The notes under the pieces: generated by a model
The model's database searches: none
Seen by the model: only the letters and a program-made list of their open reading frames with translations
Told to the model about the DNA's origin: nothing
Program-made: the position numbers and the translations under genes
Part shown: piece by piece, positions 1,347 to 27,705 of the stretch
Numbering within the stretch: the first letter of the stretch is position 1
Layout of the letters: each line of letters begins with the position of its first letter
Source of the DNA: Microthyrium microscopicum
Taxonomy: Eukaryota
Length of the DNA: 64,000 bases
Assembly (NCBI GenBank): GCA_010405405.1
Contig: MU004236.1
Location: forward strand, 1,308,070 to 1,372,069
Direction: 5' to 3'

Positions 1347-4300
1347 ATGCCGGGGCACTCGCACTCCTCATCTGGATCTTCAGGTCACTCTCTCAAGCCC
1401 CAGCAATTGCTTTATACCCATATCATAAACTAACCCGTTCAAAGATCGCGACCCGAATCGTACCAATGGCCATTCCCGAACGAAATCGAAAAGCTCTATG
1501 GCTCGTCCACGGGGTCAATCTGGTAGAGCCGAACATTCCTCCAAGCCGTCCGCAATCGATACCAGTGTAACCAACGCACACCGACCGCCCCTGAAGTCTC
1601 GCGCCCTCTCTGCCCCATTAGTCCCGAAAGGCACGTTGCCATCGCCCTTGCAAGAACGCGGCAATGGCTTCGGACCCGTGGCCGCCACAAACCCCGGAGA
1701 TGTGGTCGACGAAGAAATCGCAAACGACCCCTTTTTCCAGCGCTACAGTCTGCCACACAACGGCGATGATAGTGACGAGGACGATGAGGCGCCTTCGTCC
1801 GAGGGTCGCATCGATAGTGTACTGTCGCCCACGAGTTCCACGGCCTCGTTGTTACGACCAGAATCGACAACGGGTGAGCCATTACTCTCGCCCTCGAGTC
1901 CTAGGTCTCCTCGATATGTAAGACTAGCGATTTCATATTCCCCCCTAGACTCATCGTGACGTGTCGAAAATAGAATTGGGAGGAAATGAGGCTGACTGGG
2001 CATTTTCTAGTGGAACTCGAGCCAATCGACCAAACCCCAATTACAGGCTGTAAATATCGCAGTGGTAGGCGCCAGTCAAGTTGGCAAATCAACTTTCATA
2101 CGACAGGCCCTTGATTGGGAAGATTTACCGGACACTCCTTTTACCCAAAGAAAAGTTCAGATGGACGGCACTGTTTACGTCGTTCGCTTGATTGAGATTG
2201 GATTTGGTGATCTGGATTTGGATGATGAGAAATGCATTTGTTGGCCGGACGTTATCAGAAATACCCCCGTTCCTCATATTGATGGTGCATTTACGCTTTA
2301 CGATGTAACATGCAAAGACAGCCTTATTCAAGTCCCCGAAACACTAAGTGCGCCTCCCCTTGGAAATTGCTGCCCCTTGAGCTGACATTCGAACTTTGAC
2401 AGACGGACTTTATAACGCCAAAATTCCCTTCTTGTTGGTAGCATGCAAATGCGATCATTCTCCAAACTTGACGCCGGTCAACCCAGACCAAGTGGATGCA
2501 GACGCTCGAGCGCAAATTGGCAGTATTCGTACCCTTAGAACATCGGAGGCCGCCCCGGATACGCAAAAACGTTGTGTTGCTGTTTTACTGCGAGCAATCG
2601 CTGCAGTTCGTTCTCGTAAGTTTCGATGATTTCTCGTAACGACATTGCTGGACTCGAAAGATGGTTGTGCGTGGAGAAAGGGAGCAATTGGGCATCCTGC
2701 ACTGTTGACGTTCAGCCTCTTCGTTTCATACTAGAACCACACCGCTAACCACTCCGGCGCCTATAGAGCAACTCAACAGTGCACCCAACCGCCGAAGAGC
2801 CAATTCCTCGGCCATACACTCTCAGAATACTCCTGTGTCGCCTCCTCTCCAAAAACATCATCGCGCGAATAGCGAAATGTCCATGAACATGTATCGAGGC
2901 ACTCAGCGCACCAACAATTCGAGCAGATTCAGACCCGAAATCAATCCTCCGTTGTCGACGCGATCTCAATCGCATCAAAACTTGCCCGCTAATGCTGGAT
3001 CACGAACCTACGGCGATGGTACACGCCAACACGACTTTGTATCTAACGGCGACGACTTGGAGATGAATCCTAAATCCCCAGGAATCGCCTCGCCACTGCA
3101 AGGGGATTCTTTTGAAGACCTTGTGACTCGACTATTATCTCCTCTCAGATTGAAAGCTGATACACAGTTTGCAAGCGTGTTCCTGGCATTGTACCGACTA
3201 TTCGCCTCGCCTGGTCAATTACTGGATACCATCATAAAGAGCTTCGACGCGTTAAACTCCAACAGTATCCCACAAATGATTAAAGCAGCAGCACAGCAAC
3301 GCCATCTCAGTGTGCTAGAGATTTGGACCAGCAACTACCCAGGCGATTTTGCACATCCATACAGCAGTATGAAGCTACAGAGCTTTGTTACTCGAATCGC
3401 AAACAGCCCCTTATTCATTGCTGCGTCACAGGAACTGGCCGCAAATCTCGAGTACATTTCTGAGGACGATGACACCGATTGGGCCTTCTGCGACCGAGAC
3501 CGTTCCAACGTTCCCATAAACAAGGGTTCATTGAACCTAATCACCAAGAATCTGTCTGGTATGAACCTGGCCAGCATGGCCGACAAATCCGCGTCTCAAA
3601 CACCCGTCTCTCCAACAACCATTGGGAACTCCTCAATGTCCTCTAGCCAATCCCATCTTTCTTTCGTTGAGCAAGCCATCAGACAGGCTACTCACCTTAC
3701 GCCAACGCCACGATTCCCTCTAAACAAACTTCAATGGCACCTATTGATGGACGCGCCAGAGGATGTAATCGCCAATGAAATGAGCCGAATGGATTGGACA
3801 ATGTTCTGTAGCATTCGTCCACGAGACCTTGTGCGTCATGTCTCCCTGTCCGGCGCCGCAAAAGCAAATTGTCGCGCCCTCGAAAATGTGGAACGAATGA
3901 TTGACCATTTCAATCATGTCGCGCTATGGACAGTCAACATGATACTTCTACGAGACAAACCGAAACACCGAGCACTGATGTTGGAAAAACTAATGAGAGT
4001 GGCACGCGAACTACGACGAATGAACAACTACAACGGAGCCGGTGCTGTAGTGGCTGGAATCAACAACGTCGCGATCCAGCGTCTTCATAGCACAAAGGAG
4101 CTTATCAACCCGGCCATCGGCAAAGACTTCTTGAAGTTGAACATCCTCATGGCGCCTGAGAAAAGCCACTCAGCTTATAGATTGGCCTGGGAGAATACCT
4201 CTGGACCTCGTATTCCCTACCTCCCGATACATCGCCGCGATCTCATCCATGCTGCAGAAAGCAATCGTACATTCATCGGAGAGGAGGATGATTCAAAGAT

Positions 4301-4610
4301 CGGACAAACGGTCAACTATCGCGAGCGCCGCATCAACTGGAAAAAGTTCGAAATCATGGGCGCTGTGGTGGTTTCTATGGCGAAAGCTAAAGATGCTCCA
4401 AACCCAGGAGTCAGTCGCAATGATGAGATCAAGAGCCTGCTCATCGACGTTGAGATTGAGCGTGACGACGAAGTAAGCTCTAATACCGACTAGAACGTTT
4501 TATAGGAACTTATGCTAACCGTTGGATAGAAACTCTGGGAGCGAAGCCGACTTGTCGAACCATCTCCCTCGGACAGCAAAACGCGCTCCTTTCCTTGGCC
4601 CAAGCGATAG
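1347..4610 (+). CDS. RasGEF (REM + CDC25-homology domain) with N-terminal atypical Ras-like P-loop domain
   Basis: Six exons joined in frame: 1347-1383, 1445-1917, 2011-2347, 2403-2615, 2767-4472, 4530-4610 (GT..AG with branch sites). P-loop NIAVVGASQVGKST and G4-like LVACKCD; REM-like FLALYRLFASPGQLL; CDC25-HD motifs LRRMNNYNG and PRIPYLPIHRRDL; C-terminal INWKKF and LWERSRLVEP. Confidence 0.88.
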
Positions 4611-7929: not shown

Positions 7930-9550
7930 CTATCTTTGCTCCGCTTTGAGGCCCGACGACGAGCATGATGAAGTCAATGGTGCCTCAACCTCACCTTCCG
8001 AATCACTATACTCATCCCAAAGAAACTCATGGTCTCTAGGCTCGTTGCTAATCTTGCGACCAGAGAGCTTTATATCGCCGGTGAAACTGGTGGACATCAT
8101 TGCTGTAAACCCAGTCAATGTGACCCTGAAGTCTATGTGTCCTACATTGACAGAGGCGTCATTGTGATTTGTGTTGTTTCCAAACCCTCGCCATACCATG
8201 TCAAGTCGGCGAAGAAACAGCGACCTTTTGCTCCCGTCACTCGTCTTAAGTTTCTTTGCTGTCGAAGCATCTAGATCATCGGTAGCCGGCCGTTTCGAAG
8301 ATCCTTGAGCGGTAAATTTTGCACTATTGATTTCTTGGTCAACATCACATGTATATGTTTTCTGGTCTAGGGGGCACTAACCTGGCGTTGGCACTACTTG
8401 AAGCACTCTTCGTAGTGGTTTTAGGAGTATTGCCGAACGGGCTCTTGAGTCTGTTCTCAGGCTGTGCCACAGAGAGTAGCATCGTGCCCTCCAAGAAGCC
8501 AAAGTTGAAAGCACCTGTCAGACAGTTCTTGTTGGCGTGGGTGGAAATACAAAGAGTCATCTCACTCGCAGGTTTATGTTGCCTGTCAAGAGGGGTACTA
8601 TCATGCAAGTAAAGGACATAAGAGCCAACGTAGGATTCGGCTTTGGACGAGTCCTTTGGATTTGCTTCGGCCGCGGTGGATAAGTTCTTCTGTAAAACCA
8701 GTATTTCGGCCTGTCGCGCGGAATTCTGCTTGTTTAAGTCCTCGCTTTTACGCGCCAGAAGTTCTTCGATTTTCCTTTTATGTTTCTGCTCGTATTGATG
8801 CTTGCGAAACTTCTTCCAAAGAGTTGTCTTGCTGATGACATCTTTGAGATCCCATCCGATGGTGAGAAATTGTTCTTGTCGGAAGCTAGACCCAAAGCTG
8901 TACAAACCTTGAACCTCGCTAGCTTCTTTATGTAGTCTATCACAAACAGAGGAAGATAGGCCAGTGAGAGTTTCGGACTTTGGTCGTATCGTCCTGTCTG
9001 GAGCTCCATCAACGTTCAGGTAACGCCATTTGATGTAGCGCTCTGGATTTTGCTTAGCTTGACGGATGGGAGAAAGCTTAGAGTAGGCAACTTCGTCTCG
9101 ATAATTCTCCAGAGCTTCCCAGTAAGGATTCGCAATCCTACGCCATTTTCTTTTGAAGTCGTTCTCTAGTATTTGAATTCTCTCAGGTATCGTTAAAGCT
9201 GCGGAAGCTGCACCAACATGGGGTGGCACAGAAATGCTGACATTCTCGTGGGCCAAGATTTCCTTCTCCAGTCGGTTCTTTAGCTGTTCAGTTGTCTCGA
9301 TATCGTGAAAGTCAAAGCCGTAGTGAGTCAGTTGTGCTGCGAACCAAGATCTCGTGCAGATATGTTGTGCGTCTTCAACGGTGTGTGAGCGTTGATCTTT
9401 TTCAATTCGTTCAGGAAAAAGCAGTTCTAGGACTTCTTCATAATCGTATCTTAACACGCCGTGGACTCTAAGATAGCCATCATAGGTAAAGCCATCATTT
9501 TTTAGTGGTTTTGGTGGCTCAGGGACCGTGAGAATACGAAGCTTGGGCAT
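7930..9550 (-). CDS. Uncharacterised fungal protein, paralogue A
   Basis: The 401-aa ORF joins the 7930-8199 frame through a 58-nt intron at 8324-8381 (GTTAGT..TTGAC..TAG). Motifs DGFTY, SWFAAQLTHYGF, ESYVGSY, GAFNFGFLEG, VWRG are shared with paralogue B. Confidence 0.75.
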
Positions 9551-10309
9551 TGTGAATGGTGACAGTCAAACAGGAACTCGGGCGTAGAGGAGAATATTGT
9601 AAAGAATGTATTCGAGATAGCGAAGTGCACTGCGAAGGATGTCATCCCATTGAAGACGCGTCGATTAGACGCGTTGGTGGCGCTGTGAGCCCCTTTCCAC
9701 TCTCGTTTCTCAAGTAACCTCTGTGATTACGCCACAAGGCTAACCACAAAATGTTTGAGCGAACGTCTTTCTCTCAAGAGTCAAGACGGAATGACAGGAC
9801 AGAAACATGGTCAAGTGCTCGAATTCGGTGCTTTATGAAGTTTGAAGCCTATGGTTCACGATAGGCTTTTATACTCGTTACTCCATATTCATAAATGAAT
9901 GAGCCTTTGATAGCCTTCATCCAATTATGATTCAATCATCAGCTGGTCTCAGTCTACTTTCGCTCTCGACGAATACCGTGCATAAATTCCCAGAACAAAG
10001 CGAACAAAATCACGCAGTTTTGTAGAGATTAATTAGCACACGTCGCAATGATCTACGGTGCAACAGTGGACCAGCAGCAGGCACCGGCACACTGATTGTC
10101 TACAGAAAGAGCAATTCTAAGGATCACTATCGTATTTACTGTCTTTAGGCAGCATATGTATTTCATCTTTCTGGAGACCTTAGACAACCAATCTTTGATG
10201 GGTTGTTGAGGCCTCCAGAGCACCAGTATCAGTTCTGCGCGAGTTATTTCTGGCATTGAAACTGCATAGAGCCTTTAGGCATAGACTAAGTTAAGTGATT
10301 ACGGTTGCC

Positions 10310-11145
10310 TTATCTCAGTGGACTCAGACCCTCAGGGAGTGTTAATCTAACCCTATCGGGTTAGATAGTATTCTATCTCCTTAACAACCAATAACAATAC
10401 TCCTAAATAAACACTCCCTAAGGGTCTGAGATTAACTTACACGTTCTATACTATGTCTGGCTTAGCTTTTTGTTTATAAATACCTTTTTTAACCCCTTCT
10501 TTTATAACGAATTATAAGATAACTAATATATAATATAGCCTAAGATTTAGGCTATATAATCTCCTTATTCTTAGCTATCTACCTATATTAAAATCTTCTT
10601 TATGCCCTTTTTAGTTATCTTATAATCTCTTATTAAAGTTTAGTAATAAAAAAGTTAACTTTTTTTTTAACTTAGTATTACTATATAACGAAAGGTTATA
10701 GAAAAAAAAGAATAAATTTTATAAATACGTTAAAATATACTCTCTCTATAGTAAGATTTCTAAGATATAAAATTAATAGATAGGCTTAAATATATATATT
10801 AAAAATTATTATACTTTTTAGAAAAGCTAAGCTAGACTCCTATTTAGATTATAAAATAAGAAGATTTTTAAGGAGTTATATAGTAAATATTAAAGCCTAA
10901 AAATTAAACTATATATAGATATGCTTCAAAATTATAGCCTTTTATAAGAAAATTACTTATAGCTATTCTAGTTATTAAGATATTTAGTAAATCATAAAGT
11001 AGGATTTTTTTGTTAAGGCTAATATAGTATAGATTGCTTAAGTATCTCTTAGGCTCTAATTCAGGGTTAGGGAGCGTTAGCGACTAAAACTAAGCATTAA
11101 TAATAAGACGCTAACCTGAATTAGAGCCTGAGCACGCTGAGGTAA
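10310..11145. mobile_element. RIP-mutated non-autonomous DNA transposon (about 836 bp) with imperfect TIRs and 8-bp target-site duplication
   Basis: Direct repeat cggttgcc at 10302-10309 and 11146-11153. Left end ttatctcagtggactcag versus reverse complement of the right end ttacctcagcgtgctcag. Interior extremely AT/TpA-rich with no ORF. Confidence 0.8.
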
Positions 11146-11487
11146 CGGTTGCCCCAACACCAATAAAAATTCGCTGTTTAACGAACTAGGTCATGTTGAA
11201 TGCTCGCGTTTCGTTCGTTTTGTCAATACAGCCAAAATGCAATAACCTTATGCTTCCATTCATTGTTAAAGACGGAGACATCATTTCTATTTAGCTAGGT
11301 ACTGTCGCTACAGACCCTGTCGGCATGCTTTGCTCCTAAGATACTATTCTTTGTTGTAAACTTTTGATTTTGAAGCCGTAATCTGTAAAGTGCATTAACA
11401 TATCGCACTTCATACTGGCAAGATCAAACTTGGCGATCAGACTCTTGGGGAGCCTTGGTTCATTGTTCTCGAGCTCTTGTTAGCACA

Positions 11488-11602
11488 AGGGAGACAATTC
11501 CTATGTTACATCTTTTCACCAGGGAGATAATACTAAGCCGCTTCGATTCGCCGGGGAGACAATACTAAGCAGCCTCGCTTTTCCAGGGAGACAATATTAA
11601 GC
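11488..11602 (+). repeat. Four phased copies of RGGGAGAYAAT(AYTAAGC) upstream of the CaaX-peptide gene
   Basis: Copies start at 11488, 11521, 11553 and 11585 (spacing 33/32/32), separated by diverged spacers. The first copy lacks the TAAGC tail. Confidence 0.8.
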
Positions 11603-11851
11603 TTAGCCACATCACAAAGTCTTTATATCGTGCGTTAAAGCAATCGTCTCCATAGCAAAGCATCCTTTATCATCCTAAAAAAACCCCAATACCAAAGAAG
11701 TCCTATGTTCTAGCCCAGCTCCAACGCACTACTTAATTCCTCAGCTCCAACCATACCCGGAAAGCTCCATCCCTAAACACAAAAACCTACACAACATAAC
11801 CACAAAAACAAGTTTTCTGGTAAAACAAACAAAACACAAACAAAAATCACA

Positions 11852-12073
11852 ATGATCTCCAACATTTCTTCGCCCGTCAACCAGAACGCCGATTGGGGCT
11901 CCAACTGGCAACTATGCACTGTCATGCGCACTGATGACATTGCCTTGCCCGTCGACGAGAATGAGTTCATGCATACATACTGGTCATGTAGCGTCATGAA
12001 AAGCGAGGAAATCGCCTTGCCCGTCAACGAGAACGAATTCATGCATACATACTGGTCATGCACCGTCATGTAA
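11852..12073 (+). CDS. Putative a-factor-like lipopeptide mating pheromone precursor with three tandem CaaX units
   Basis: 73 aa: ..PVNQNADWGSNWQL-CTVM-R..PVDENEFMHTYWS-CSVM-K..PVNENEFMHTYWS-CTVM*. Terminal CaaX. The 72-nt repeats differ mostly at synonymous positions. A-rich 5' leader and CACAATG start context. Confidence 0.8.
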   Translation: MISNISSPVNQNADWGSNWQLCTVMRTDDIALPVDENEFMHTYWSCSVMKSEEIALPVNENEFMHTYWSCTVM

Positions 12074-12613
12074 ACCGTAAATAAGCATGGACGTTAAGCA
12101 AGTTCAACTTGTTGATGGTGCGATTATAGATCTCTATAGAGGACAGACTGTCGGTCACCAGCACCGGATGATGGTGATTGTAATCAGCTGTTTTTATGTC
12201 GGCCGCTCTAAGATAGACTTCCCTTTCTTCTCAATATAACTTTTTACTTTCAATATTTTGTTTCAACGAACTGCGTATGTGATAGTATTCACTAACAAAA
12301 GTAAGTTGGTACATGCATTGAATTCGAGATGATATCCTTCTCCTCCAAGGCACTGAGCGCTTTTCGTTGATTCATCAAAATGCGAGCATATCTTTGATAT
12401 CTTAAGGTTTTGTGAACATCCCATCAGTCCGATATTGGCGGCTGCCAAGCCTACTACCATCTATCAGGCTGAACCTTGCACCATTAGGCTGAAACAGAAG
12501 GTGACGAATTTCATGCACAAATGTTCTTGAATGTAATTACATGTTGAAGTAGATGAGAACTCTTAGTGCCTATGAACAGAGCCGGCAAAAGCAGTTACTT
12601 AATTGCTATCTGC

Positions 12614-14274
12614 TTACTTAATGTGCGTCCAATCGAAATCGCGCAGCTTAGGAGTATTACTGATTTTGAGACCAGAAAAATAAATGTCATCAATTTCGTC
12701 CAGAGGGTCCAGCGACGACCGTCCGCCAATGCACAAATGTCCTTCAAAAGAGGAGAGATTGTTGTAAAAGTTCAAGGAGCCAGCATATGGACTATCGTCA
12801 TAAGAAATTTGACCATTCTCCCAAACTCCGTGCCAAGTCAGTGGAATTAAAACACTTCCTTGATTGACCTCCGTCTTTGACTTTTTAGCCACAGGTGAAT
12901 AATTTGAGGCGGGTCGTTTGCCGTTGGCGTTGGTTTCTGCTCCGTTCTCGCTAGATTTATCTAAAGTTTTCCAATTATCATTTAGGAAGCCAAAGATGGA
13001 GCTCTTATCGGAAGCCAATATGGGGTAACCAAAGCTGTGCACTTTGTAAGTTTGAGGCCTTGTAGCTACGTCGCCAAAATTGAAGACTTACATGTCAAAT
13101 ACAAACGGTTGTTCAGGCAGTCTCATGTAAATGCAACCACCGAGAATGTTAAACTGAAAGACACCAACCAGAGACCGCTCTTTAGGATGGATGAATATGT
13201 CAAGCGTCTCGAAATCCGATGGCAGCTGTTCTTTCCGCCTTGAACTTCCTTCTAGTGGAGAGAACTCTAGAGAGTAACGGCCCACATACGATTCAAGTCG
13301 TGCAGAATCCAGACGTCCCGATGAGCCTGCAGCCTTTGATTCTGTGTTGAATAACAACGTGCGTGCATGTGCCTCTTTAACCAATAGTCTGGACTCAAGC
13401 CTTTGTAGCCTGACCTGTTCTCGCTTTTGTAGATTTGGTATTCCCTGTCTCGTAACTTGATATGTCTGAGCCTCGTTCCACGCAATGGCAACAAGGTCTG
13501 TTTGATGGATGCTCAAGCCGTATTTGTGTAGACCGGGAACCTGATCAATAGCTTTGTAAAGTGCTTCTCGCGCTCCGGGACTAAAGCAACCAATCAATAC
13601 GATCGGCTCTGGGCTTTTTGTTCTTTGTGGTTTGCCGTGCTGATCCAAGTAGTGTCTTGAGATGAACTTTTGCGGGTCTTTGTTGGCCTGCTCGAAAGCT
13701 GGCAGTGCAGCAAAAGCAATTTCCGCTTCACGCTTTTCTTTGGCATTTGCTATTTCCGCTTCGTACTTGCGCACGTCGTCCCGGTATTCTAGAAGTTGGA
13801 AATGGTAGCGCCTTTCAAGTCTTGTTTCTATCTCTCGGAGATTCTTTGGGATTATGAAGTCGTCGACCTGTCGAGCATACGTTAGACCTCTGTATCGTAT
13901 CTGATGAAAGCAAGCTGCATCCAAGGGATAATCATACATACCTCTTGATGGGCCAATACCAGACTCCTGAGTCGATTCCGCAACCCATCATTCGTATCCT
14001 CGGTGTCGAAGTTGAAGCCATAGAGCTTTAGTTGTGCTACCAACCACGATCTGTCACACAAAAGATTCGCCTCTTTTCGAAAGATTCGTTGTTTCTCTTC
14101 ACCTTGCACTAACTCTGGTAAGAGGAAATTTTTGATTTGATCATAGGTATATCTGAAGATTCCACGGTACATGATGCGATCATTATAACTGAATCCATCG
14201 GCTTGTACTGGTTTCGGTGGTTGAGGACGATTTGGTAGGAAAGAGCCATTCGTGACTGTTACAGGTCTAGGCAT
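12614..14274 (-). CDS. Uncharacterised fungal protein, paralogue B
   Basis: Exons 14274-13942, 13867-13092, 13034-12614 (introns GTATGT..CAG and GTAAGT..CAG). Motifs DGFSY, SWLVAQLKLYGF, ESYVGRY, GVFQFNILGG, TWHG align by eye with paralogue A. The extreme 3' end may contain a further small intron. Confidence 0.75.
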
Positions 14275-15210
14275 TGTATCGCAACTGATGGGGAATATTC
14301 TACCCGTATCTGATTCAGTAAAGATATGTGAGTAGAAAGTTTCGATGGAGGGTGAACTTAAGATCATTAGGGAGATGTGGGAAACTAAGGGGGAATAACA
14401 CTATGGCTAACTCCTCAACCATTCTACCTTCTTCTAGCATAGTTTTTGCTTTTTTCACTCCGGAGTTGCTCTAAGTAATGGTTAAAAGGTTCTCTTCGAA
14501 TCAGTGTATAGGATGGCGTTTAGGCGTTACTGGGTATGGGGAGTGCCTGATGTCGATTGGCATCAATGATAAGACTCTCTAATTTGCTCCAACGCCACAA
14601 GGCTGAACTTGACACTCGAAAACCCCTTACCGTCAAGAAAACTGGCTAGACTACTCATAACTCGTGTTCTATCTGGTCATCTGATGTCTGACGATCTGAT
14701 ATGGTGGCCGTAGTTGGGCTAGGCAGAATCGAAGGAACCTGCCATCAAGAAAGAACAAGAGAACGAATATATTCAAAACCTAAACACCTGTTAATTTGCT
14801 ATGATCAGAAAGATCATCAAGGTTACAAGCGGGCCAATGATAGAGATAAGTTCAAAACTGGCGTTTTGGGGGCGTCAGCTTATACAGGAAAACAACGCTA
14901 AAGGTCGACTAAAGCAAGCCATACGGAGTATATTCTTGGAAAGTGGCCATTAAGAGGCACATCCCAATAAGCACGCACACAAGCTGACTTTATAATTAGA
15001 CAGGCCAAGTGGAATGAATCTGGGAAACAATAAGCGTTACTAACAAATATCTGCACAATCGGAGGATGTTTCATTAGGCATGGCTAGGTTATTGTCGAGT
15101 GGTGTACAGATCAGGAGTAGATGCCAGTAGAACCTGGAAAGCTATGAACAATGCATTCGCTAATAGACAAAATATACTAAACAAACTATGTACAATTTCT
15201 CCACCTTCCC

Positions 15211-18200
15211 TTAGCTCTTATCGCCGCCCCCCAAAATTCTATCATAAGCATCCTCAACATTCCTCGCTACACCTAACAGCCCCACAATGACAATTTGGTG
15301 CGTCACATTCGGCAACCGATCCCTATGCAGCCCAATCCACTCCAACGGCGGCGTAGCCTCACCCATATCCGCCAACTGCGGTGTTTCTATGACCGGCGCC
15401 TCTAACGCGCGGTAGTTGTACTTGCTCTGCGGCACATTGACGACAGCGGTAATCTTCTCCGTCTTCTCCTCGCCATCCTCCGTCGTCGACAAACTAAGCG
15501 CACTGGGCGGTCGTGCACCGTCATTGCCTGTCGTCGTGATCTTGACTGCAGATTCAGGTAGTGGTTTGCCTAGACGGGATGCGAGAGATTGCGAATGCGT
15601 GGTGTACATGTCGCGGATAAAGGTTATGCGTGCAAAGTTCCAGCCCACGTCGACTTTGCCTTCGAATGAGGAGTGGAAGATGTAGTCAATGAGATAGGTG
15701 CGTGGTGCTTGCCAGGTCTGCATACGGGCGACGACTTTTGGCACGCGTAGAATGATGCCTCCGCGGGCGGTGGTGAGTGTGTGGACAACGTCTTCGACTG
15801 TGAGTGCTTCGAGGGTGAGCTTTGGAGAAGAGGAGTGTGGGACTTGCGCGAGCGCGACTTGGACTTTGCCGAGCGTCATGCCCAAACCCGAATGAATGAG
15901 GCCGTCATCCATTTTGACGGCGAAGCGGCCTTGGATGTTAGAAGCGTCGATAAGGAAGACGGTAGAGTCAGAGAAGGAGCCGGGGAAGACACCAAGGTTT
16001 ATGGCGCCGAGGGATACTACGACGTCGGTGTGAAGTGAGATGGGAGCGTCGAGTTTTTCTTCGCCTTGAGGAGGTTTGGGAGAGATGTTTGGGGTGGTGG
16101 TGGATTCTTGACGTGGTCGGAATGATCCAGATGCTCGCTTGAGATATCGATCGATGTCTTTGAGGGATTGTGAGTAAGCGGCCTGGTTTTCTTGAACTAG
16201 TTTTTCTACTGCTTGGAACAGCGCGTAAGCTTGAGCGGCGGATTGAGCTGTGCAGCAAGCGTGAATGGCTCCGCCATCGAGAATAGCTACTAAACGGTCG
16301 CGAGGTACATCTCCACCTTCGCGGATGTTGTACATGACAAAGGAGAATTCGCCAATGTCAATTATGCCAAACGCTTGGTAGTCGAATGCAGCTTTGACGC
16401 GGAGTCTGTTAAACCCAGCTGAGGCTTGAATCAACGGCGTGTTATGCGGTGATTTTTCATCCAGAGGCCAGGAGATTGAGGTACGAACTTGGACATCCGC
16501 AAGCTCGACAAACCCACTTGTGCGACCTGTACTTTCAATGGCAACTTTCTCGATACCAACACAAAGGTTTTGCTCCCAATCAGAATTTTTCTTCGACGAT
16601 GCCCACAGGTCTGAGATCTGCAAGGAAGCTTTGCCAATTGATTGGCCCATGTCGAGATCAACTTCAATGCTTTGAATAGAGACTGTAGCGGTCCAAGGAA
16701 AGGCTGTCGCATTGGCAACTTGTTGGTATCGTTGAACGAGATAGTCTTGCTGATCATGCGTTGGCTGAGTTGAAGGAGCAGGAGATGAGCGCATCTCCTC
16801 TGGTATCCAGATGTCTCTAAAGAGTAAGAAATCTTGTAACTGTCTGGCGTTGAAGTGGGTTTTCATTGGGAATATTTTGAGCACTGCGGAGATACCTGCA
16901 CGACCGCTGAGATGTTTGCTGTTCATCACAGACAGCACTAAACGTTCCATGTCAAAGCTAAAGGTGGGCTCCCGAGAATAAACATGCTGTACTGATGCCT
17001 GCAGCTTCTCAAACGACGCAGACACAGCGAAGAAGAGATCTTGCTCGGGCGATTTGACACTGTTGGCAGTGATATAAATATCATCTACAGCAACTTCTGC
17101 GTCTACTCGGGCGATTGGTTGACAGCCGAGACTGAACTCCTGGCGACAAATCCGTATACCAAGATTGAAGCTTGTCTTGCCCAAGAGAGCGCCAGGGTCG
17201 GCATTGAGTAGGCGCTCATCCGAGAAAATTGACTGGCTGAGTTTGCCCTCCGTAGACTTGACTACTTGCTTCTCCGTGGGATCGTCAACCTGTTTCTCGG
17301 CAGGCTTATCGGTTTCTTCGACAATCAGCTTAACACTATTTGAAATGTCCATAATCAAAGGAACAACCATCGGCGTAAGAGCATTTGATGAGCCACTGAT
17401 ATTGAACTCGGCCGTGAACGATGAATCCGTTCCATCATCCTCATATTCGACCTTGAGCGCTATCCCGGGCGTTCTAAAAGTTGCCTTGGCAGATTCACCA
17501 TCGCTGGAAAACTGGCCGAAGCGACCAGGATGCGCGTCCTCTGTGCGACCAGAAAGTTTGCCAAAAGCATTGGTCTTGCCATGTTTGCTATCCGTCAGCG
17601 TAAACAGTGCACTGGCAAAATCGGCATCAACGAGTAGCGCTGACAGCCGTTTGTCTCCGAAGATTTTCTTTCGCTGTGCTCCAGATGAGGTGGGTGTCAT
17701 TTCCCATAAAGCTGAAGCGTCACGGAACTTGTCTACAGCCAGAAGGATTGAGCGTTGAATCATGTTGGCCGGAAGAAGAAAGGCGGACTCTAATTGCACG
17801 TCGACGGATTTGCTCTTTGACTGGAAAGACATGTTGCGATCTTCGTCGCTTGATGCATATGCCACGTTGAACACAACCTCCGGCAAAAGTGCCGAGTTGC
17901 GGGCTCGCATCTGCTTGTCCTCAGATATGGGCACCATCTGCAGTTGCAAATCTTGAATAGTCAGCCGAGAAGTAGATCTTGAGCGCGAATGGAGGTCGAT
18001 CATCTTGATTGAAAGCACAAGATCATGTGCCTCATGCCCAGGAAATGAATCCACAGAACTGCCAATGATCCATGCAACCTCAATATCTTTGAGTGAGACT
18101 GAGAACGCAGACGCAAAGATGCCACTCGATGTCAAGCTTGCTTCAGAGTATATTGAGTCGCCAAGGTGAGTTGAGGGTCTACGAGCTGGCTGCCGCAGTC

Positions 18201-21200
18201 TTTGCAAATAACGTCGTTCTGCAGACAAGTCAACATCCTTCAGACGATCTTGCAGATGATTAAGAACATCGACCACGGTCGAGGCTGTTTCAGCAAATAG
18301 CTGGAGCTGTATAAAGTTGACTTCCATTTTGTAGTTCCTCTTCGCCATTCCCTGTCGTGAATCGCGTCGCGTCGCTTGGATTGAAGCAGACAAGCCGAGC
18401 TTTCCACACGGACGAGTCCCTTGTGAATCTTGAATATGAAGCTCGACAAAGACTTGGCGCAATTGAGCTTGAACTTCAGGCAAAGAAAGTAGCGGCCCAT
18501 TCTCATTAGTAACATTGTAAGCATTGAGTTGCACTGAGTCTAAACCAATGGAGAGTGTGTCGAGTCCATCTTTTCGTGATTTGCCAGGGGCAACAGCTGT
18601 TACTTTAATACCAGCCAATGTGGCACCAATATTGTACACCAGCTCCGGCTTTTCGGTTTGTACTGGTGTTTCTGGTGGCGTGGTTTCCGGCAGAATTGCG
18701 CGAACTCGGTCTTTGATCGTTGATATGTCTGACTGAATGGCGCGGAATGTTTTGGATACCTCAGGTCTTTTGAAAGTTGCTAAAACAGCATGCACTGCTG
18801 AAGCTTCAATATCAATCTGCTCGATAATGGTACGCAAATTCAGCACAATTCGTTTAGGAGTGTGGCGAATGCCAAGTTGGCCGTTGACCGGGGGAAGACG
18901 TATGGATGCAATGGCACCTTCTTCGCCATCTGTTGTAGTGACAAGTCGATGAGTATTACCATCGAGGTCGAAGTTGACATACAATGAAACCTCTTGAAGG
19001 AGTCGTGGCACGATAGATATACGGCCTTGTTTGCCTTCCATTGTGTATGTGATAGCTTGGAGCAAGGCAACTCGAATGGAGTAAGAGTCCATTAACAATG
19101 CTAGATTTAGCTTCGGAAGACCTCGCTGTAGAAGCTCCTTGGGCTTAACGCGCTCATCAGGTGGTCCAACTAGCCGCTTGATTCTAGGAACAAGTTCGGC
19201 TACTTCAGTGGTGATAAAATGGTCCACAACCTCGATCATATCCAATAACTCACTCTCAACGTTGAGAAATAGATATGAGCTAGTGCCAGCAAGTCGCCAC
19301 TCAACTTCCTGTGAAAGCGACTTTTTCTCCGGAGCTTCACGAGAGATGTACAAGGTCGGTGACTGAGTGACCATCTTCAAGAGAAGTCTTGATGAAGATC
19401 TGAACTCGCTCCAAGCCTCTCCAGAGGTCAGGACAGCGCTGACAAATTCTGCATCATTTGGAGTCGGCCCTGAAGATCCAACGATAGACATATTCATGCC
19501 GTTGTTGGCAAATGTAGCTTGAAGATTCGGCGTCTTTACATCTAATGCACTTTCGTTGACAGTGAGAACAACTTGGATGGCATTGTAAACACCTTCTTTT
19601 GGTTTGGGTGGCGTGCGGGGTGGTTGAGATGGAGCCTCAGACTGCTTTCTGTTGTTTGCTTGAATAGTTGTTCGCACAACGGCAAGGACACTCTCGACAA
19701 CAGAAAAGATAGCCCAGTTGACGTTGACCGATATGCTCTCCGCATGGATCTGCAATATTGACTTCATCGAAGGCGCTGCAGGTCCTACGATGTTCAACCC
19801 TGATGGTTCTGAAGCAGGCGAATTTGCCAAATTGACAGCCAGGTTGCGGATTGCAAAATCTGTTTGATCCCGTCCGAGGTCGATAATTGCGCGAAGTATT
19901 CCGGATCTGATTCCGACCTGCAGCTGTTTCTCAGAGGACGCTGCTGGGATTGGAGGTGTTATTTTCCGCCCGAAGAGATACTTCATGGCTATGCTGTCTT
20001 GAACGTCAGACAAATCCCAGGTCCGCCATTGGTTCCAAGAGTTTATGACAACAACCTCAGCATTAGCGGGCATGAGGTTGGTGGTATTCAGACAATTACT
20101 CTTGAATCTCTGTTGCTCATCTTCAGGTAAGTGTTCGTAAATATGGCGAAGTCGAGAAACAATTTTCCAGGAGTCATGGTTTCGGAGGTGGCCAGAGGAT
20201 GCTCGTAGGAGATACGAGGGCCTAGTCAGAAAAACGGGGTCCGAAACATCTTCTCCGGCAAGAGTTAGGATATACGCGAGACTTGCAAATCGATGGCTTT
20301 GTTTGTTTGTCATAGTGAGAACACGGTTCGCAAGTTCTTGGCCCAGTTTGGTGGTTCTTTGAACCATGGCAGCAAGGTATCCAACTTGCATACTGGTGAC
20401 TGCAATGTGAGCATCTCTGAAAGATGTGTTTATAGTTTGCTGTTCAGCAAAAGATAGCCAGAAGAGCAGATCATCCAATCTAAGCTCAAGAGCGACGTCA
20501 AACTTTGCATGTGAAGGGCATCTTTCGGTAGCTTTGACAGTCAATGACTTGAAAGAGCAATGTAGGCTTGCAGCTTCAGTATTATCAGAGTCGTGTCCAG
20601 GCGTGCTATGTCTACCAAGGAAGGACAAGCCAGTCAACGAGAGATCAAACTGGTCCAATCCCATCGGCATGTCAGGTGTATCCACTTCAAATGGATTGAG
20701 AAAGCGAAGTGCAATACTTGGAATATCGAGTCGGAGCTCCAGCACTTCTGGGGTGCCATGGGTCAACTTCTCTTGACTTGCAATTTTGTTTGCGACTGTG
20801 ACTTGCAATTCATCAAGTAAATCATCAGGTGTCTTGGGTGCGAGCACCCCGAGAAGTTCCATGATTGAGAAAATTGCATCAGGCTTGACAAACCACTGGA
20901 TACCAGGCCCCGTACTGACGATAAGGCTTGTATGTGTGTGCTCTTCGGATAGACTAGTATCTGGCACACCAAGATCATTGTCTACTCCCGGTAAGTCTTT
21001 CTTCGAGTTGGCACCCATAAGAGGTGGTAGTTCAGAGGCATCTGGCTGAACAGCATTAAGAGGAAAATAGGGAGTTGCCAAAGGACTTGACAAAACCAAG
21101 TTGTTTGACCATACACCACTTCTCCGAGATGTTCTGCGTGAGGCGCCGGGTCGATGCTCTGAAAAGGACAAATCAATGAGTTCGGATTGCGGAGTCTCTG

Positions 21201-24200
21201 CTCGGGCTGTCTTGAAAGAAGCATGACTTCTTTTTGAACGAATCGACTGTGATAGGGATGCTGTGGACTTTTGGCGTCGGAGCTTTCCAAGCTGCGCAGG
21301 TGAAGCGTTGGCTTGAAATTGGAACGACCTGCTACTACTGGACTTGAAAGTCGGAGTAATACTGCGTTGATAGGGCCATCCTTGATGATGTTGCAATGGC
21401 TCTGGAATGGGCGGAAATATCATAGCCGGCGGATCGTCTTTTGATAGAAGTTGCCTCTGTGGCATGACTTCGGTGTTTCTCAAGAATGTGGTTCTATGCG
21501 TTCGACTATCCTGAACCATGAGATATTCTTGTTGTTTCTGTCGTTCATCAGAAAAGTTCAATTTCCTTTGGAGCACATCTAGAGAAAGGGATGTGCGAAG
21601 GTGAGCCTGGGTAACAGGTTTCAAGTCGCCTCTACTATTTCTGCCACGGTTTGCAGAATTGGCATCAACAAGAGATACAGTAAGCAGAGGACACAGAACC
21701 TTGACTCGAAGGGAAAAGTCGAGACTGGCCCAATCGCTCACATCCACAGTGATTGGATCAGCCGTGACTAATAATGCATTTTGGTCAAGGTGCATCCAGA
21801 CCTTGATGATTTTGGTCTTGGCTCTGACGAAAGTAACGTCGTGAATGGAAGCCAAGTCAATCAACCCTATTGAGTTCTCGGCGTTGGCAATAGTCAAAGC
21901 GAACGATTGAGCAGCATGGAGCAATTTCTCAGCAAAATCAATCGAGGCTTCTCCAGTGATATCGCCTACACTGACGTCCCAGTGAGAGAAGTAAGTTGGT
22001 TCAGTCGGCGGAAGACCAAAAGCTCGATGACCGGTAACATTGACACTTTGAATGAAGACTTCGGTTCGACTGTCCAGGATGAGTGGTGTACTTTTGACCT
22101 GTTCTGCAATGTCCAAGGAGACGCTCAAAGGGCTGGAGTCCATTTGCATGTCTAGATAGTAGTTTGACAGCCTCAGGTCCGCCGTAGCATACGCAACGTC
22201 AATGACCACGTTCTCTGTTGATTTGTAAATATTAGTGGGGAGCAGAACGCGAATGTCATCACAATTGATCAACATAATAATGTCCAAGTCGTTTGATCTA
22301 TTAGATCTTTGGGCAATCTCCGTTTCTTCTGCATCCACTTGTTTGCCACTCGCCAATGCTTGATACTCTTCCAGTGTTTTAAAATGAAGGTGTTCACCAA
22401 AGTAATTTTCTTTCAATGTCACGAGGTGGTGAACAACAAATCCGAACATCCAGAGGGTGACTTTAGATCCATGAATGTTAAAAGTGAGTCTGTCGGTGAG
22501 TTGCGTTGAGGTATCAGTATTTGCTACATGACTGCCTTTAAGCGTAACTTCCTCGAGTACCATAATGTCGCGTTTTCCCGTGAATTGAGCTGCTGTGTTT
22601 CGGCTGTTCAGGCACAGCTCTAATCCAAAATCTCTACCAACAACGTTGAATGGAATTTCTTTCCGCTTTGGATTGAGTTCATCTAGTGGGATGGTGACTT
22701 CGGCATGCAGCTGGCGCCCATGGAGGATCAAAAAGTGGTTATCATCAAGCTCAGACGGGTTGTTGATGATGTTCGAGTCGTTGGAATTGAGATACATCTT
22801 GAAGTTGCGAAAGTGGACGTCAAGAAAATAGCGGAATGGAGTAAATGTATGAAATTCGGATGCAGGGCCTGCGGTCCAATCTCCAACCACGTCCGTAATG
22901 AGAAAAAGGTGATCTCTCAATATGAACAAGTCAAGATCATCATTCTCAACATTGAAGTACCACTCTCGCAGAGTATTAAACTCCAGTGGAACAGAAAGGT
23001 CACAATCCAATTTCGTAGGCCCGGATCGCCACAAGAGTCCGTGATTTACACTGGTGTATATTTCCAGCGAAGGAATATCAGCATCTACTTGACTCTTGAA
23101 CCCCGAAGGACGAGCAATCATGTCGGATTTGTAGTTCACTGTCGTGTTCTTAGGAATCTTGACGTCGAGCCAAGCATATGGACGAGCATTGGGACCTGCA
23201 GAAGCCTTGTCTGATGCCTTCCAGAACTGACGACGTTTTCCTCTAGCGCGTGCCTTTGGGGCTTTCTTGTTTTTGTCCTTTCGGGGCACAATTGTACCGG
23301 CTTTACCCTTCCATTTCCAATCCTTTGATTGTTCACGAACAGGCAGTCGAAGAGTTGTTTCGTCCTCGACGCTCAGGTAGAGTTTGAATTCAGTGCTCAC
23401 CCGTAAGTCTCCGGATGATAGAGGCGTTCCTGGAATCGCATGTGCGTAAATTGGAGGAAAGAAGATGTTTTGAAAGTTTATTCGCTGTCGATCAGTCCAG
23501 GGGCCGTAGTTCACGGTTCCACCATAGATCAGGATGTCCATGCCATATTCAGGAGGAAGAGAGCCATTGATATGATCTTTTGGCTTTCCATTTTCGAGCC
23601 TATCCAGAGTTTTGGAAACTGTTCCTGGTATATCCCAGTAGAAGGAGAAGCCAATCTTGGGACAGTCTGCCAGAACAGACGAGCGCGCATACTCTACATT
23701 CCCCCACTCATCGTGCTCGTTCCTGAACCCGTCGTCAAGATATCGACTTAGCCCCGCCCATTGCTCTTCACCAGGAAGGTTCTGGAAGTCCGGACTGGTC
23801 GCCCCGTCCATACTATGCAGCGACGAACCCCTTACCGAATCACCGGAGCTGGAAATAAACGGCACCTTGATTTTGCGCTGGCGCTTCGATGGCTTCCGCT
23901 TCGGATTGATATCCTGTTCGACAGATTCATGCTTCATTCGAGCAGCTGCAGTAAGTTGAAATTCTTTAAAGTCCATGTTCGGCCGCAAAGTTATGTATGG
24001 GTGGTGAAAGTCAAAAGTAAACATTATTTTGTAGACATCCAACGGCCCAGCTTCTGCCGCGTCAAAAGTTCCACTTGCTGTATCCAGTTTGACTGTGATG
24101 ATCGACTTGGTGTTTTCATTTCCGAGAATTAGCGCTGCTGTTTTGCATTCGACCTGAATGGGGAACATTCTTAGCCACGAGGGTGTTTCTGGCTTAGAAG

Positions 24201-24978
24201 ATTTGGAAGAATCACTAGTTGCTTCATCATCTTCAGATGTATTTCCCTTGAGCCAACCAGCGGGAAATGATGGTCGCGGAATATGTCGCTTGCTAGCCGG
24301 AGCATCAGCGCCATTGGAGCCAGGAGCACTTTGCTGATCTTCTGATTGTCTCCGGGATCCAATTTCTTGATTCAGCGATCGGTTGATGTTTTCCAGAATG
24401 TTGTCGTATGCTGGAGATCTATTGTAGAAGAACCCTTGGACACCCTCGACATTTATCTTTATTCGGCATGGCAAAGTCGATTTCTCTCCTGGCACATTGG
24501 CAGTTTCCTCGTCGACCTTTTCTGCAGCATCAGTGCTAGTCGAGAGTGGACTTTCAGGCTTCTTGTCTTTTGCCAGGCGACGTGTTTGGAAGATTTGAGC
24601 TAGGCGTGCCCTTGGATACCAGTAGTGCCATGTGATGAAGCCAGAATGGACGAGGACGGTGACATTGTGACCGTGGTAGCGAACGTCCTTGAAAAAGATC
24701 CTACCACCAAGCAACGATATTTGAAAAGCCTGGATATCGACGTATGCGCCATAAGTTCGCCAAGTATAGAACCGTATTATGTAGGAAAGGACGGTGCCGA
24801 TTAGTCGATCGAAGTACGCGAAGAAGAAGACGGCACTAGTTAATTGAGTAAGACGCCCAGAGTGCTGAGACGACGATGCAGCTTACAGGACTCCGGAGAG
24901 TATCAGCTCAATGAGCAAGATGTAATTGAAGGCTTGGTTGCTGCCATCTATAAGCTGGCCGACCAAGCCCGTCACCAT
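15211..24978 (-). CDS. CSF1: Csf1/BLTP1 bridge-like lipid transfer protein (about 3240 aa)
   Basis: The 3167-aa ORF extends upstream via intron 24836-24886 to ATG 24978, giving an N-terminal TM (LLIELILSGVLAVFFFAYFDRL) followed by QAFQISLLGGRIFFK. Also GGTVNYGPWTDRQR and C-terminal PQLADMGEATPPLEWIG, typical of Csf1. Confidence 0.92.
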
Positions 24979-25501: not shown

Positions 25502-27705
25502 ATGGACTTTGTCGCTGCTAGGGATGGCGGAACTGGAAGTCGATTCGGACGTGTTATAATCATCTTGACTGGTGTTGCAAGTTTGCTCGCCACTCTAACC
25601 ACTGTGGTGTAAGATATCACGGCCGACTCTCTGGTACCATTCACTAATTCTTCCGCGAATAGAGCAGTATGGCTTCAAACGTAAACTTCCCCGCCTCGAC
25701 TACTACACAACATTGCTAAGATATCTACAGTAAGAACTACCGCAAACCACTTCTTCAGCGATATGTCGTACGAATATTACTCATGTCAGTACATCATACA
25801 TCTTTGTCTATGAATCTGCGCTTAAACATCATTTAGGGTGCCAATATACTCCATCTCCTCCTGGGTTAGCTTAATATCAATGAAAGCATCGGATTTCATA
25901 GATCCATTTCGAGATGTCTATGAAGTACGTTCTGCACCAACATACATTCAATCCGACTAACACTTGCGCTAGGCCTTCACCATATACACCTTCGTTCAAC
26001 TTCTTATCAATTTTCTCGGTGGAGAACGATCTCTCCTTATCATGACCTATGGCCGACGCCCTGTCCGCCACCTCTGGCCACTCACCCATTGTCTCCCACC
26101 CGTTGACATCTCCGATCCATATACATTCCTGGCCATCAAGCGCGGTATATTGCAATACACGTGGATGAAGCCAACCCTAGCTTTAGCGACTATCATCATG
26201 AAAGCGACTGGGACCTACCAAGAAGGCTACATAGGCCTCACATCTGGCTATTTTTGGAGTGGTATAATATACAACATAAGCATTACAATCAGTTTATATG
26301 CTCTTGCCATGTTCTGGGTCATTATGAGCCAAGATCTGAAGCCGTTTCGCCCAATGCCCAAATTCCTGTGCGTCAAAGGCATTATTTTCGCCTCTTATTG
26401 GCAAGGATTTTTTCTATCAATTCTAGTCTGGCTCGGCGCCTTACCAGATGACGTCCCTGGATATTCACCTGACAACCTCGCAGTTGCAATTCAGGATGCG
26501 CTGATTTGTTTCGAAATGCCAGCTTTTGCACTGGCTCATTGGTACGCCTTTTCTTGGCACGACTATGCAGACCCTACCATCTCTGCTGCCCGCCTGCCGA
26601 TCAAGTACGCCTTGCGAGATGCTTTCGGACCGGCTGATCTCATTCAAGATACGAAAGAAACATTCTTCAAGAGTCATTATGACTATCGACACTTTGATGC
26701 CCGGGATAGTGTGCTTGCTCATGAAGAGTCATCTTCAAGGAATGCGAGAATGAAAGCAGGAATGCGATATACTCGCGGCAAAGGAAAATACTGGCTACCA
26801 GAGTCAAATGGTAGCAAAAAGCCGCTCCTACAGGGAAGTAGAGCACGCGGCATGTCCAGCCCGTCGAGATCAAGAGATACATCCCAGTATGGAACCCTTG
26901 ACGCCGAAACTGACGGAGAGCCTGAACTTGATCCGGATGAGGAGCGACTTTATGACGATGCAAAACAGCTGGAATTTGGGGACTGGAATGTAAGTTGGCA
27001 ACCAACAAATTCATGGACATGTACTCACCAGTCACAGTATCCTGTGATAACAGCTCATACAGCTAACCGAGAAGCACTTTTATATCGCGATCCAAGCATT
27101 GTGACTGCATCCACCAATCGCAATCTACTTCAGCCTGGTAAGGTTCAAAGACAGAAGAGAAAGTCAAGGATTCAGGAGATTCAGGACTCTTCTGACCCGG
27201 CATCTACAGCCGCTGGAAAGAAGAAGTCGGACAGACAAGACTCGGGTAGCAAAGATCAGAAACCACTGCTGAAGAAAAATAAGTCAAGCTCGGGTTCGTC
27301 TAGTTCTTCTGCCAACAGCCAGCTGGTGGATTTAGTGGTAGAAGACGAAGAAGCAGAAGAAATCGAACGAGTTCGTGCGCGTAAGGAAGGCTCGCCGAGA
27401 TGGAATGAGACAGACCCCAAGCACTTTGTGTAAGTCTGCTCTCTGCTGCGACCTATCGGATTAATGCTAATCATGCCATGTAGACGCACGTACCATGAAG
27501 CCGGACAGGCAGAAGAGGTGCGAGAGGGATACGCACCAGACGAGGTAGATCCCAACCAGCCGCACGGCGCAGAGCAGATTCACACTTTGGACCAGCCTCT
27601 TCAAGAAGGTAAGATTTTTCCTGGAAACAAAAGCTTGTTGAAATACTTGGCCAACCAACAGATGATATGTTTCCCATCAAACGTGGTGAGAAACAAAGCA
27701 TTTGA
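25502..27705 (+). CDS. HFL1: TMEM184/OST-alpha (DUF300) family membrane protein, Hfl1-like
   Basis: Spliced N-terminus KNYRKPLLQRYVVRILLMVPIYSISSW..RDVYEAFTIY; KRGILQY; KFLCVKGIIFASYWQ; ICFEMP..HWYAFS; LYDDAKQLEFGDWN/YPVI motif. About seven introns; the 3' end (stop 27703-27705) is less certain. Confidence 0.85.

Follow-up and report, generated by a model that had tools for sequence, protein, structure and literature searches.

A candidate multi-unit precursor of farnesylated a-factor-like peptides in the Dothideomycete Microthyrium microscopicum

Lipopeptide pheromone precursors that repeat their CaaX box are known from several fungal groups. HPP1 of Trichoderma reesei is described as containing three copies of (L/I)GC(S/T)VM and as being essential for male fertility (PMC3068285). 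In Huntiella, up to seven a-pheromone genes with up to five repeats per gene have been reported, with units starting with Arg, and a likeness to the genes of the Fusarium fujikuroi complex is pointed out there (PMC10182648). Ceratocystidaceae genes are described as encoding one to five peptides of 7–10 amino acids (aa), ‘similar but not identical’ to one another, at several loci and with N, S or T as the p of the box (PMC13037118). This CpaX form (p = T, S or N), with a polar first a position and proposed in PMC3068285, has been described for the a-pheromones of Hypocreales and Ceratocystidaceae (PMC3068285, PMC13037118). Along with two further traits, a box for every one of several peptides and more than one locus in the genome, it serves to recognize the a-pheromones of Sordariomycetes (PMC13037118, PMC10182648, PMC3068285). 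Repeated precursors of basidiomycetes include that of rhodotorucine A in red yeasts (RHA) and the tandem MFA1 of Microbotryum and rusts (PMC3068285, PMC3236058, PMC10977897). According to a 2023 survey, before the putative Leotiomycete gene that it presents no a-factor gene had ever been found in filamentous ascomycetes outside the Sordariomycetes (PMC10569646). Regarding the Dothideomycetes, we found no literature report of an a-factor-like gene; one genome paper from this class states that no pheromone genes were predicted (PMC4886633), and Ste6-like exporters are reported at one per genome in all the Dothideomycetes examined (PMC6071951). Here we analyze a 73-aa open reading frame (ORF) from the leaf-litter fungus Microthyrium microscopicum (Dothideomycetes, Microthyriales), located in a stretch of 64,000 nucleotides (nt) of contig MU004236.1 (assembly GCA_010405405.1), which we call the window. 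We think it probable that this ORF is a real, unannotated gene, one of two unlinked paralogs, and that it encodes a precursor of farnesylated a-factor-like pheromones.

The ORF is made of three units of 23–26 aa each (Table 1). Unit 1 reads MISNISSPVNQN-ADWGSNWQLC-TVM-R, unit 2 reads TDDIALPVDEN-EFMHTYWSC-SVM-K, and unit 3 reads SEEIALPVNEN-EFMHTYWSC-TVM-stop. Hereafter, ADWGSNWQLC and EFMHTYWSC are referred to as cores A and B. The initial annotation had described a three-unit ORF with PV(N/D)xN, a Trp-containing core and C-(T/S)-V-M in every unit, as well as one basic residue after each internal box, and both descriptions proved correct. The six-frame translation of the 64 kb contains C[TS]VM three times, always inside this ORF; it also contains 165 Cxxx-stop ends, compared to two of the CxxM-stop type, one of which belongs to this ORF, and 45 small ORFs that start with ATG and end in Cxxx-stop. 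A degenerate DNA pattern for PV[ND][EQ]N..C..VM-TAA gave one match, with 0.00 expected from 100 shuffles. With 73 residues and C-T-V-M just before the stop, the ORF is within the length given for a-factor-like precursors (at most 100 aa, with a CaaX or CpaX box before the stop). Signal-peptide-like stretches are absent, the Kyte-Doolittle maximum over 9 residues being 0.84, at the extreme N-terminus. There are no dibasic sites (KR, RR or KK) either, and R26 and K50 stand single. Neither a start resembling the signal peptide nor the KEX2/STE13-flanked repeats of alpha-factor-like precursors (ppg1 type) are present. The start codon is the first ATG after an ATG-free leader, with a stop in frame 75 nt upstream; ATGs on the + strand between 11300 and 11855 are found at 11325, 11503, 11705 and 11852 only.

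Table 1. Coordinates of the features of the candidate precursor locus and of the other genes identified in the window
Feature	Position	Strand	Remarks
Candidate multi-unit lipopeptide pheromone precursor ORF	11852..12073	+	ATG to TAA, 73 aa
Unit 1 pro-region, MISNISSPVNQN	11852..11887	+	PVxxN motif at its end; paralog start likewise MISN..SPVN.N
Core A, ADWGSNWQLC (predicted mature peptide 1)	11888..11917	+	Cys22, predicted farnesyl acceptor; same in both A-type units of P0001
aaX of first CpaX box (TVM) and single basic R26	11918..11929	+
Unit 2 pro-region, TDDIALPVDEN	11930..11962	+
Core B copy 1, EFMHTYWSC	11963..11989	+	Cys46; same as B-type unit of P0001
aaX of second box (SVM) and single basic K50	11990..12001	+
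Unit 3 pro-region, SEEIALPVNEN	12002..12034	+
Core B copy 2, EFMHTYWSC	12035..12061	+	Cys70
Terminal aaX (TVM) and TAA stop	12062..12073	+	Sole true C-terminal CaaX as translated
ATG-free, CA-rich leader	11709..11851	+	143 nt; in-frame stop at 11774-11776; start context cacaATG
Four GGGAGA(C/T)AAT motifs	11489..11610	+	32-33-nt spacing, 257-363 nt before the ATG; 32-nt repeat, 2.8-3 copies
RasGEF gene	2709-4493		Pfam
DUF300/Ostalpha gene	25973-27433	+	Pfam; 486-aa raw reading
DUF7082 gene	38453-40072	-	Pfam
PLA2_B lysophospholipase gene	51079-53973	-	Pfam; two exons
Exo70 gene	55154-56605	+	Pfam
GYF-domain protein gene	61523-64000	+	Pfam

The ORF can be compared with P0001 (KAF2670057.1), a 125-aa ‘hypothetical protein’ of the same species. 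It is encoded on a 2.78-Mb contig, while the genes of the window lie on a 2.42-Mb contig, and it is an unlinked paralog in the same genome, not an ortholog. From Met51 onwards P0001 is built of three units in the same way, and its cores follow the order A-A-B instead of A-B-B: ADWGSNWQLC is found twice and EFMHTYWSC once (A:B of 2:1, compared to 1:2 in the window), and the protein ends in C-N-V-M. P-V-(N/D)-x-N, Cys and x-V-M are kept in six out of six units of both paralogs. Each peptide is followed by its own C-terminal-type box (3/3 units in the window ORF and 3/3 in P0001), the internal boxes have R or K as the next residue in four out of four cases, and the polar position of the box reads T, S, T, T, T and N across the six units. 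The stretch over which the paralogs are similar opens exactly with MISN; in the DNA it extends as far as the stop codon and no further. Comparing units of the same type between them (two pairs), we observed 0 differences in 19 core positions and 8 in 31 non-core positions (Fisher one-sided p=0.015). Besides, 5 out of 54 bases of the last unit differ from the RNA contig of the paralog (see below), with one residue changed (T to N) in 18 codons, so four of the five base differences are silent. The middle-unit spacers look orthologous (TDDIAL and TEE-AL, with third units starting with S), but the cores that they precede differ (B in the window, A in P0001), as would be expected if cores had been exchanged while the flanks around them were conserved. 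Residues 1–50 of P0001 have no counterpart in the window gene, where the in-frame stop sits 75 nt upstream; the annotated start lies 50 codons above MISN, and this extension is hydrophobic, with a Kyte-Doolittle maximum of 2.26.

In comparison with the described systems, the ORF resembles HPP1 in being small and without an apparent signal peptide, in its three C-(S/T)-V-M boxes, one of them C-terminal (PMC3068285), and in the basic residues after the internal boxes. The messenger RNA size is also similar, about 0.6 kb (591 nt for the hpp1 cDNA, PMC3068285, and 615 nt for the contig of the paralog). In contrast, HPP1 has 48 aa and shows the (L/I)G consensus of its class before the Cys, where the window ORF has QL, WS and WS. 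HPP1 has dibasic Kex2 sites (KR, KK), which PMC3068285 places in H. jecorina only, instead of single R or K residues, and it has neither a repeated PVxxN pro-region nor a second, unlike core. The protein searches detected no homology between the two, one belonging to the Sordariomycetes and the other to the Dothideomycetes. Several unlinked loci, varying repeat numbers and peptides of 7–10 aa are reported for Huntiella and the Ceratocystidaceae, and the genes described here are similar in this, with the peptides as predicted; a single basic residue after the box is also common to both, being in Huntiella the Arg that opens the next unit. However, the Huntiella units are described as 12 aa long and placed back to back, while the units of the window ORF span 23–26 aa and have their own pro-region ending in PVxxN. 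Huntiella and Ceratocystidaceae peptides are reported as ‘almost identical’ or ‘similar but not identical’, whereas cores A and B are unlike each other and have one Trp and the Cys in common; the repeats of Huntiella, Ceratocystidaceae and rusts are compared here by their description, and some of those precursors may also carry very unlike peptides. The flanking genes differ as well, being tubulin, a nucleolar protein and laccase-1 in the descriptions of Huntiella and Ceratocystidaceae, and CSF1 plus two paralogs of unknown function here. Sordariomycete a-factor genes are said to adjoin cyanate lyase (PMC3068285), and none was found among the ORFs scanned in the window. As in the MFA1 of cereal rusts, whose three repeats reportedly can differ from one another, the units of the window ORF are not all alike; unlike it, RHA and MFA1 are described in basidiomycete mating-type loci, with the same or similar peptides and a spacer without a long pro-region. 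Finally, each 23–26-aa unit matches the size and layout of one whole precursor of the type of Neurospora crassa mfa-1, Sordaria macrospora ppg2 or the Leotiomycete a-factor (PMC10569646), with a pro-region, about 10 aa up to the Cys, and an aaX ending in Met. Those canonical precursors, in contrast, are described as single-unit proteins with a Ser/Thr-rich N-terminus and a conserved C-terminal Gly-Tyr motif (PMC10569646).

The initial annotation had proposed that this may be an undescribed pheromone architecture for the lineage, without mentioning the multi-locus genes with repeated CaaX units and non-identical peptides that are well described in Huntiella, other Ceratocystidaceae and the Fusarium fujikuroi complex. 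As these repeated-CaaX precursors belong to Sordariomycetes, the novelty of the architecture concerns this lineage and is not a general one. What is new here is the class of fungi, the pro-region with a conserved motif in each unit, the presence of two unlike cores in both paralogs, and their mirrored copy numbers. We consider the ORF a rather convincing candidate, with evidence coming from one genome and with a chemistry and biology predicted from its sequence. A concrete candidate with two predicted masses and a unit grammar makes the a-factor question testable in Dothideomycetes, which include many crop pathogens with poorly understood sexual cycles. Moreover, the retention of two dissimilar peptides by the two paralogs poses a question of ligand-receptor logic that had not arisen before. 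The locus also illustrates how such genes escape annotation, with one copy absent from protein collections and the other recorded as a ‘hypothetical protein’ whose start lies above the conserved one.

As anticipated in the initial annotation, the gene was missed: the exact 73-aa protein is absent from about 15 billion collected proteins. A word-indexed protein search, restricted to proteins of 40–128 aa, gave one candidate and one match, P0001. Using phmmer against 1.84 billion representative proteins of all lengths, we obtained five matches at E<=0.001, with P0001 as the one true relative; the other four (P0002-P0005) are, by eye, long and unrelated repetitive proteins. The ORF has no Pfam family and no usable match in the ESM Atlas. 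A metagenome scan with the alignment of the two paralogs gave 154 pattern matches, none of them confirmed by tblastn. A second scan, with a DNA pattern based on the structure, gave six loci (L001-L006), close to what a manual estimate predicts from chance alone, and all were rejected, as they had in-frame stops or lacked the repeat structure.

Transcription of the region is suggested by sequencing run X5. A mismatch-free contig of 1575 nt joins position 13034 to 13092, removing 13035-13091, a 57-nt GTAAGT...AG intron of the minus-strand neighbour gene, and joining frames 13088-13987 and 12614-13087. The joined frame runs through the junction, with one stop in 439 codons. Since this contig is spliced across an intron of the neighbour, X5 contains spliced RNA of M. 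microscopicum. In the same run, mismatch-free contigs cover 11303-11770 and 11766-12006. A further contig of 615 nt fits only at 12020-12073, where 5 of its letters differ. Translated by eye, the 30 letters just ahead of this fit give the residues found before the last unit of P0001, so we assign this contig to the transcript of the paralog. By arithmetic, the annotated start of P0001 falls inside it, at around record position 54. Contig depths were not used for ranking genes, and stretches without X5 cover (e.g. 12096-12581) were not used as evidence. Run X6, which is labelled as a different organism, contains one exact 244-nt contig at 11720-11963 with a depth of 2.8; nothing was concluded from it, as one library may have carried over into another.

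A long intergenic region rich in AT surrounds the ORF, with a G+C fraction of 0.36 for 10001-12000. Upstream of it, GGGAGA(C/T)AAT forms an array that we propose as a candidate cis-regulatory element: the window holds five matches to this motif, compared to 0.36 expected, and four of the five are in the array at 11489-11595. Its ACAAT core is reminiscent of high-mobility-group (HMG) box sites. A search for GAGAMCAATR gave nothing in the window (one match, with 0.66 expected). A copy of the upstream element accompanies the paralog. In each of the source DNA runs X3 and X1, one contig bears a sequence resembling 11553-11600 together with one resembling the last unit, so that the element is on the same contig as a second pheromone unit; its depth was 1151.5 in X3 and 109.6 in X1, similar to the 867.8 and 104 of the window’s own contig. 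This agrees with the presence of a second gene. X5 also has a 4154-nt contig with a 48-nt look-alike of the upstream repeat at 11553-11600, with 5 other letters, and flanks that by eye resemble those of the window, CATTGTTCTC before and CACAAAGT after. It may represent a third locus with the upstream element, or the upstream region of the paralog.

From this anatomy we infer each biochemical step of a processing route, as well as a role in mating. With no apparent signal peptide, the precursor would act as a chain of three small a-factor precursors linked through single basic residues. Endoproteolysis at or beside R26 and K50, and where necessary the subsequent loss of the basic residue, would place each C-(T/S)-V-M box at a C-terminus; alternatively, the units could be processed one after another, beginning with the C-terminal one, in the manner suggested for rhodotorucine A. 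The step by which internal boxes become C-terminal is described as unresolved for HPP1 and rhodotorucine A too (PMC3068285). A cytosolic farnesyltransferase would prenylate the Cys, the X being Met, followed by removal of the aaX tripeptide and carboxymethylation of the Cys. The pro-region would come off by cleavage C-terminal to the invariant Asn of PV(N/D)xN, and a cut after Asn is the filter site for yeast a-factor candidates (bioRxiv 10.1101/2021.09.28.462209). Release by a Ste6-type ATP-binding cassette exporter would give ADWGSNWQLC once and EFMHTYWSC twice, both bearing S-farnesyl and O-methyl groups (calculated [M+H]+ 1397.69 and 1421.66, respectively), for sensing by a Ste3-type receptor. 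The paralog would supply the same two peptides with an A:B of 2:1. The idea of an a-factor-type polyprotein with two CaaX peptides gains partial support from the paralog, which keeps both cores, PVxxN and the boxes, from the fit of these boxes to the CpaX form, from the unannotated status of the gene and from its X5 cover; prenylation, cleavage, mating-type expression and receptor activation keep the rank of predictions.

A bolder proposal is that each precursor releases two chemically unrelated farnesylated peptides, and that two unlinked genes encode them in mirrored ratios (A1B2 and A2B1), which adds up to three copies of each peptide. We make it tentatively, judging it somewhat unlikely. 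If true, the cores would be exchangeable cassettes between conserved flanks (PVxxN upstream and C-p-V-M-basic downstream). An ascomycete would then have a lipopeptide system with two ligands, both peptides being jointly needed or having separate receptors or functions, and the unit would provide a pattern with which to look for the a-factor-type pheromones that have long been missing in Dothideomycetes.

Several observations weigh against a farnesylated pheromone precursor at this locus. To our knowledge, no enzyme makes a cytosolic cut at a single basic residue. The N-terminus of the ORF is weakly hydrophobic, hydrophobicity at this end being a feature by which a-factors are recognized; the leader MISNISSPVNQN is weakly Ser/Thr-rich, with 3 Ser in 12 residues; and the GY dipeptide is absent from the 73 aa. 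A Gly-Tyr motif and a Ser/Thr-rich or hydrophobic N-terminus are described as marks of the Sordariomycete, Leotiomycete and Ceratocystidaceae a-factors (PMC10569646, PMC13037118). The extension of P0001, if used, might route the protein into the secretory pathway, which misfits cytosolic prenylation. In HPP1, the loss of the Kex2 sites is reported not to abolish fertility (PMC3068285), and the putative a-factor of Leotiomycetes is reported not to be expressed by mating type (PMC10569646). As for the runs, none of those containing the stretch is recorded as RNA, and the RNA label of X5 comes from a guess of the tool plus the spliced contig. The X5 contigs over the ORF are thin (depth 4.6–5.5) and reveal neither strand nor level, and one of them reaches 549 nt upstream of the ATG, over three upstream ATGs. 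Finally, neither the protein collections nor the two metagenome scans yielded a relative outside the M. microscopicum genome, which leaves a pair of paralogs from a single strain as the basis for conservation.

Prenylated peptides made by the same biochemistry could also have a job other than mate recognition, such as density sensing, hyphal communication or development. This would fit with the Leotiomycete observation, made in three heterothallic species and leading its authors to doubt a classical role (PMC10569646), with the quorum-type use of an a-pheromone in Fusarium oxysporum that the Huntiella paper cites (PMC10182648), and with the presence of contigs of both paralogs in X5, where there is no sign of a cross set up. 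However, HPP1 and the classical a-factor-like genes are reported as needed for male fertility (PMC3068285), and our data contain no evidence for a specific non-mating function. We regard such a role as unlikely.

Regarding the boxes, one could argue that only the terminal one is used. The whole chain of 70 residues would then be farnesylated as one protein, or else the last unit would release the only pheromone, and unit duplication would have left the internal boxes behind. Farnesyltransferase requires a C-terminal CaaX, and as translated only 12059-12070 offers one; the lack of a known cytosolic monobasic processing enzyme and the function of HPP1 without Kex2 sites (PMC3068285) point in the same direction. 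Yet the four internal boxes of the two paralogs all keep Cys, Val and Met, vary only between T and S, and are followed by R or K. Core A, besides, is found at non-terminal positions only (3/3) and is invariant, which is hard to explain if non-terminal units never matured. We consider the use of the terminal box alone very unlikely.

More unlikely still is that no peptide is made from the sense frame, and that the three units are a chance or antisense reading of duplicated sequence, with a 98-aa ORF at 11773..12069(-) or a non-coding RNA as the actual product. The question arises from the comparison of units 2 and 3, which, as had been noted, are 72-nt direct repeats (11914-11985 and 11986-12057, with 81% identity in our repeat search; the pair is not listed by Tandem Repeats Finder). 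Three copies of a 17-nt sequence (GCCCGTCAACCAGAACG-like), spaced by 75 and 72 nt, correspond to the PVxxN motif at the DNA level. The differences between both units had been described as mostly synonymous. The synonymous codons listed (for I, N, E and C) are indeed so, but the 10 differing codons comprise 4 synonymous and 6 conservative changes (R/K, T/S, D/E, D/E, D/N and S/T). Within the 9-codon core, both differences are synonymous, and the proportions of non-synonymous and synonymous differences (pN/pS) are 0.047/0.36 over motif, core and box and 0.33/0.58 in the spacer. In the antisense frame, which is open, the same units give 5 synonymous and 4 non-synonymous codons. Because this frame scores about as well, the codon comparison alone cannot choose the strand and weighs against our sense reading; as a pointer to selection on the peptide, for which it had been taken, it is weaker than claimed. 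The contigs carry no strand information, and the low atlas recognition score, with no feature match, also speaks for a non-peptide. On the other side, C[TS]VM is confined to the 73-aa ORF window-wide, with one box exactly before the stop; the similarity between paralogs spans from the ATG to the stop codon; the start is the first ATG after 143 nt of ATG-free leader; and the genome annotation called P0001 in the sense frame. Besides, Rfam (E<=1) and tRNA scans (10000-13000 / 9500-13000) found no family or tRNA at the ORF. We therefore favour the sense frame, given the box before the stop, the start and stop common to the paralogs, the leader and the annotation of P0001.

The least probable alternative, a secreted and unprenylated repeat precursor processed in the Golgi (alpha-factor-like, or a Kex2-processed peptide or one of the ribosomally synthesized and post-translationally modified type), is suggested by the repeated units separated by basic residues and by the hydrophobic 50-residue extension annotated in P0001, but the window ORF has no signal-peptide-like N-terminus, the stop 75 nt upstream blocks any such extension, dibasic sites are missing, and the larger ORFs tested with Pfam (which matched Csf1, RasGEF, Ostalpha/DUF300, DUF7082, PLA2_B, Exo70 and GYF, or no family at all) include no peptide-modifying enzyme family.

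In the neighbourhood of the candidate precursor gene, the two flanking genes, 8345-9565(-) and 12614-14400(-), are collinear paralogs (28% and 38% identity in two stretches, E of 6e-22 and 5e-27), and neither has a Pfam family. The small gene is thus flanked by the two copies of an unknown gene duplicated in tandem. CSF1 is adjacent, as the initial annotation had it, at 15211-24882(-), 3 kb beyond the ORF (Pfam Csf1_N, 5.4e-147, and Csf1_C, 1.6e-94). Among the 24 stop-to-stop frames of at least 150–170 aa searched with Pfam, we found no peptide-modifying enzyme, mating-type protein or cyanate lyase. Between the first flanking gene and the upstream array, 10300-11145 is AT-rich and has hairpin-forming inverted repeats at around 10320-10433 and 11052-11130; sub-threshold Rfam matches to microRNA-like hairpins were found only at 10320-10433. 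In the source DNA this segment is represented by several diverged contigs at 3–8 times the single-copy depth, which gives it the appearance of a dispersed repeat that has degraded. The raw reading of the DUF300/Ostalpha gene was compared with the annotated M. microscopicum protein, and 470 out of 470 aligned residues were identical, the next match being at 72%. A 48-nt intron, in frame and free of stops, lies at about 26990-27037(+), and the raw ORF gains 16 residues in comparison with the annotated protein.

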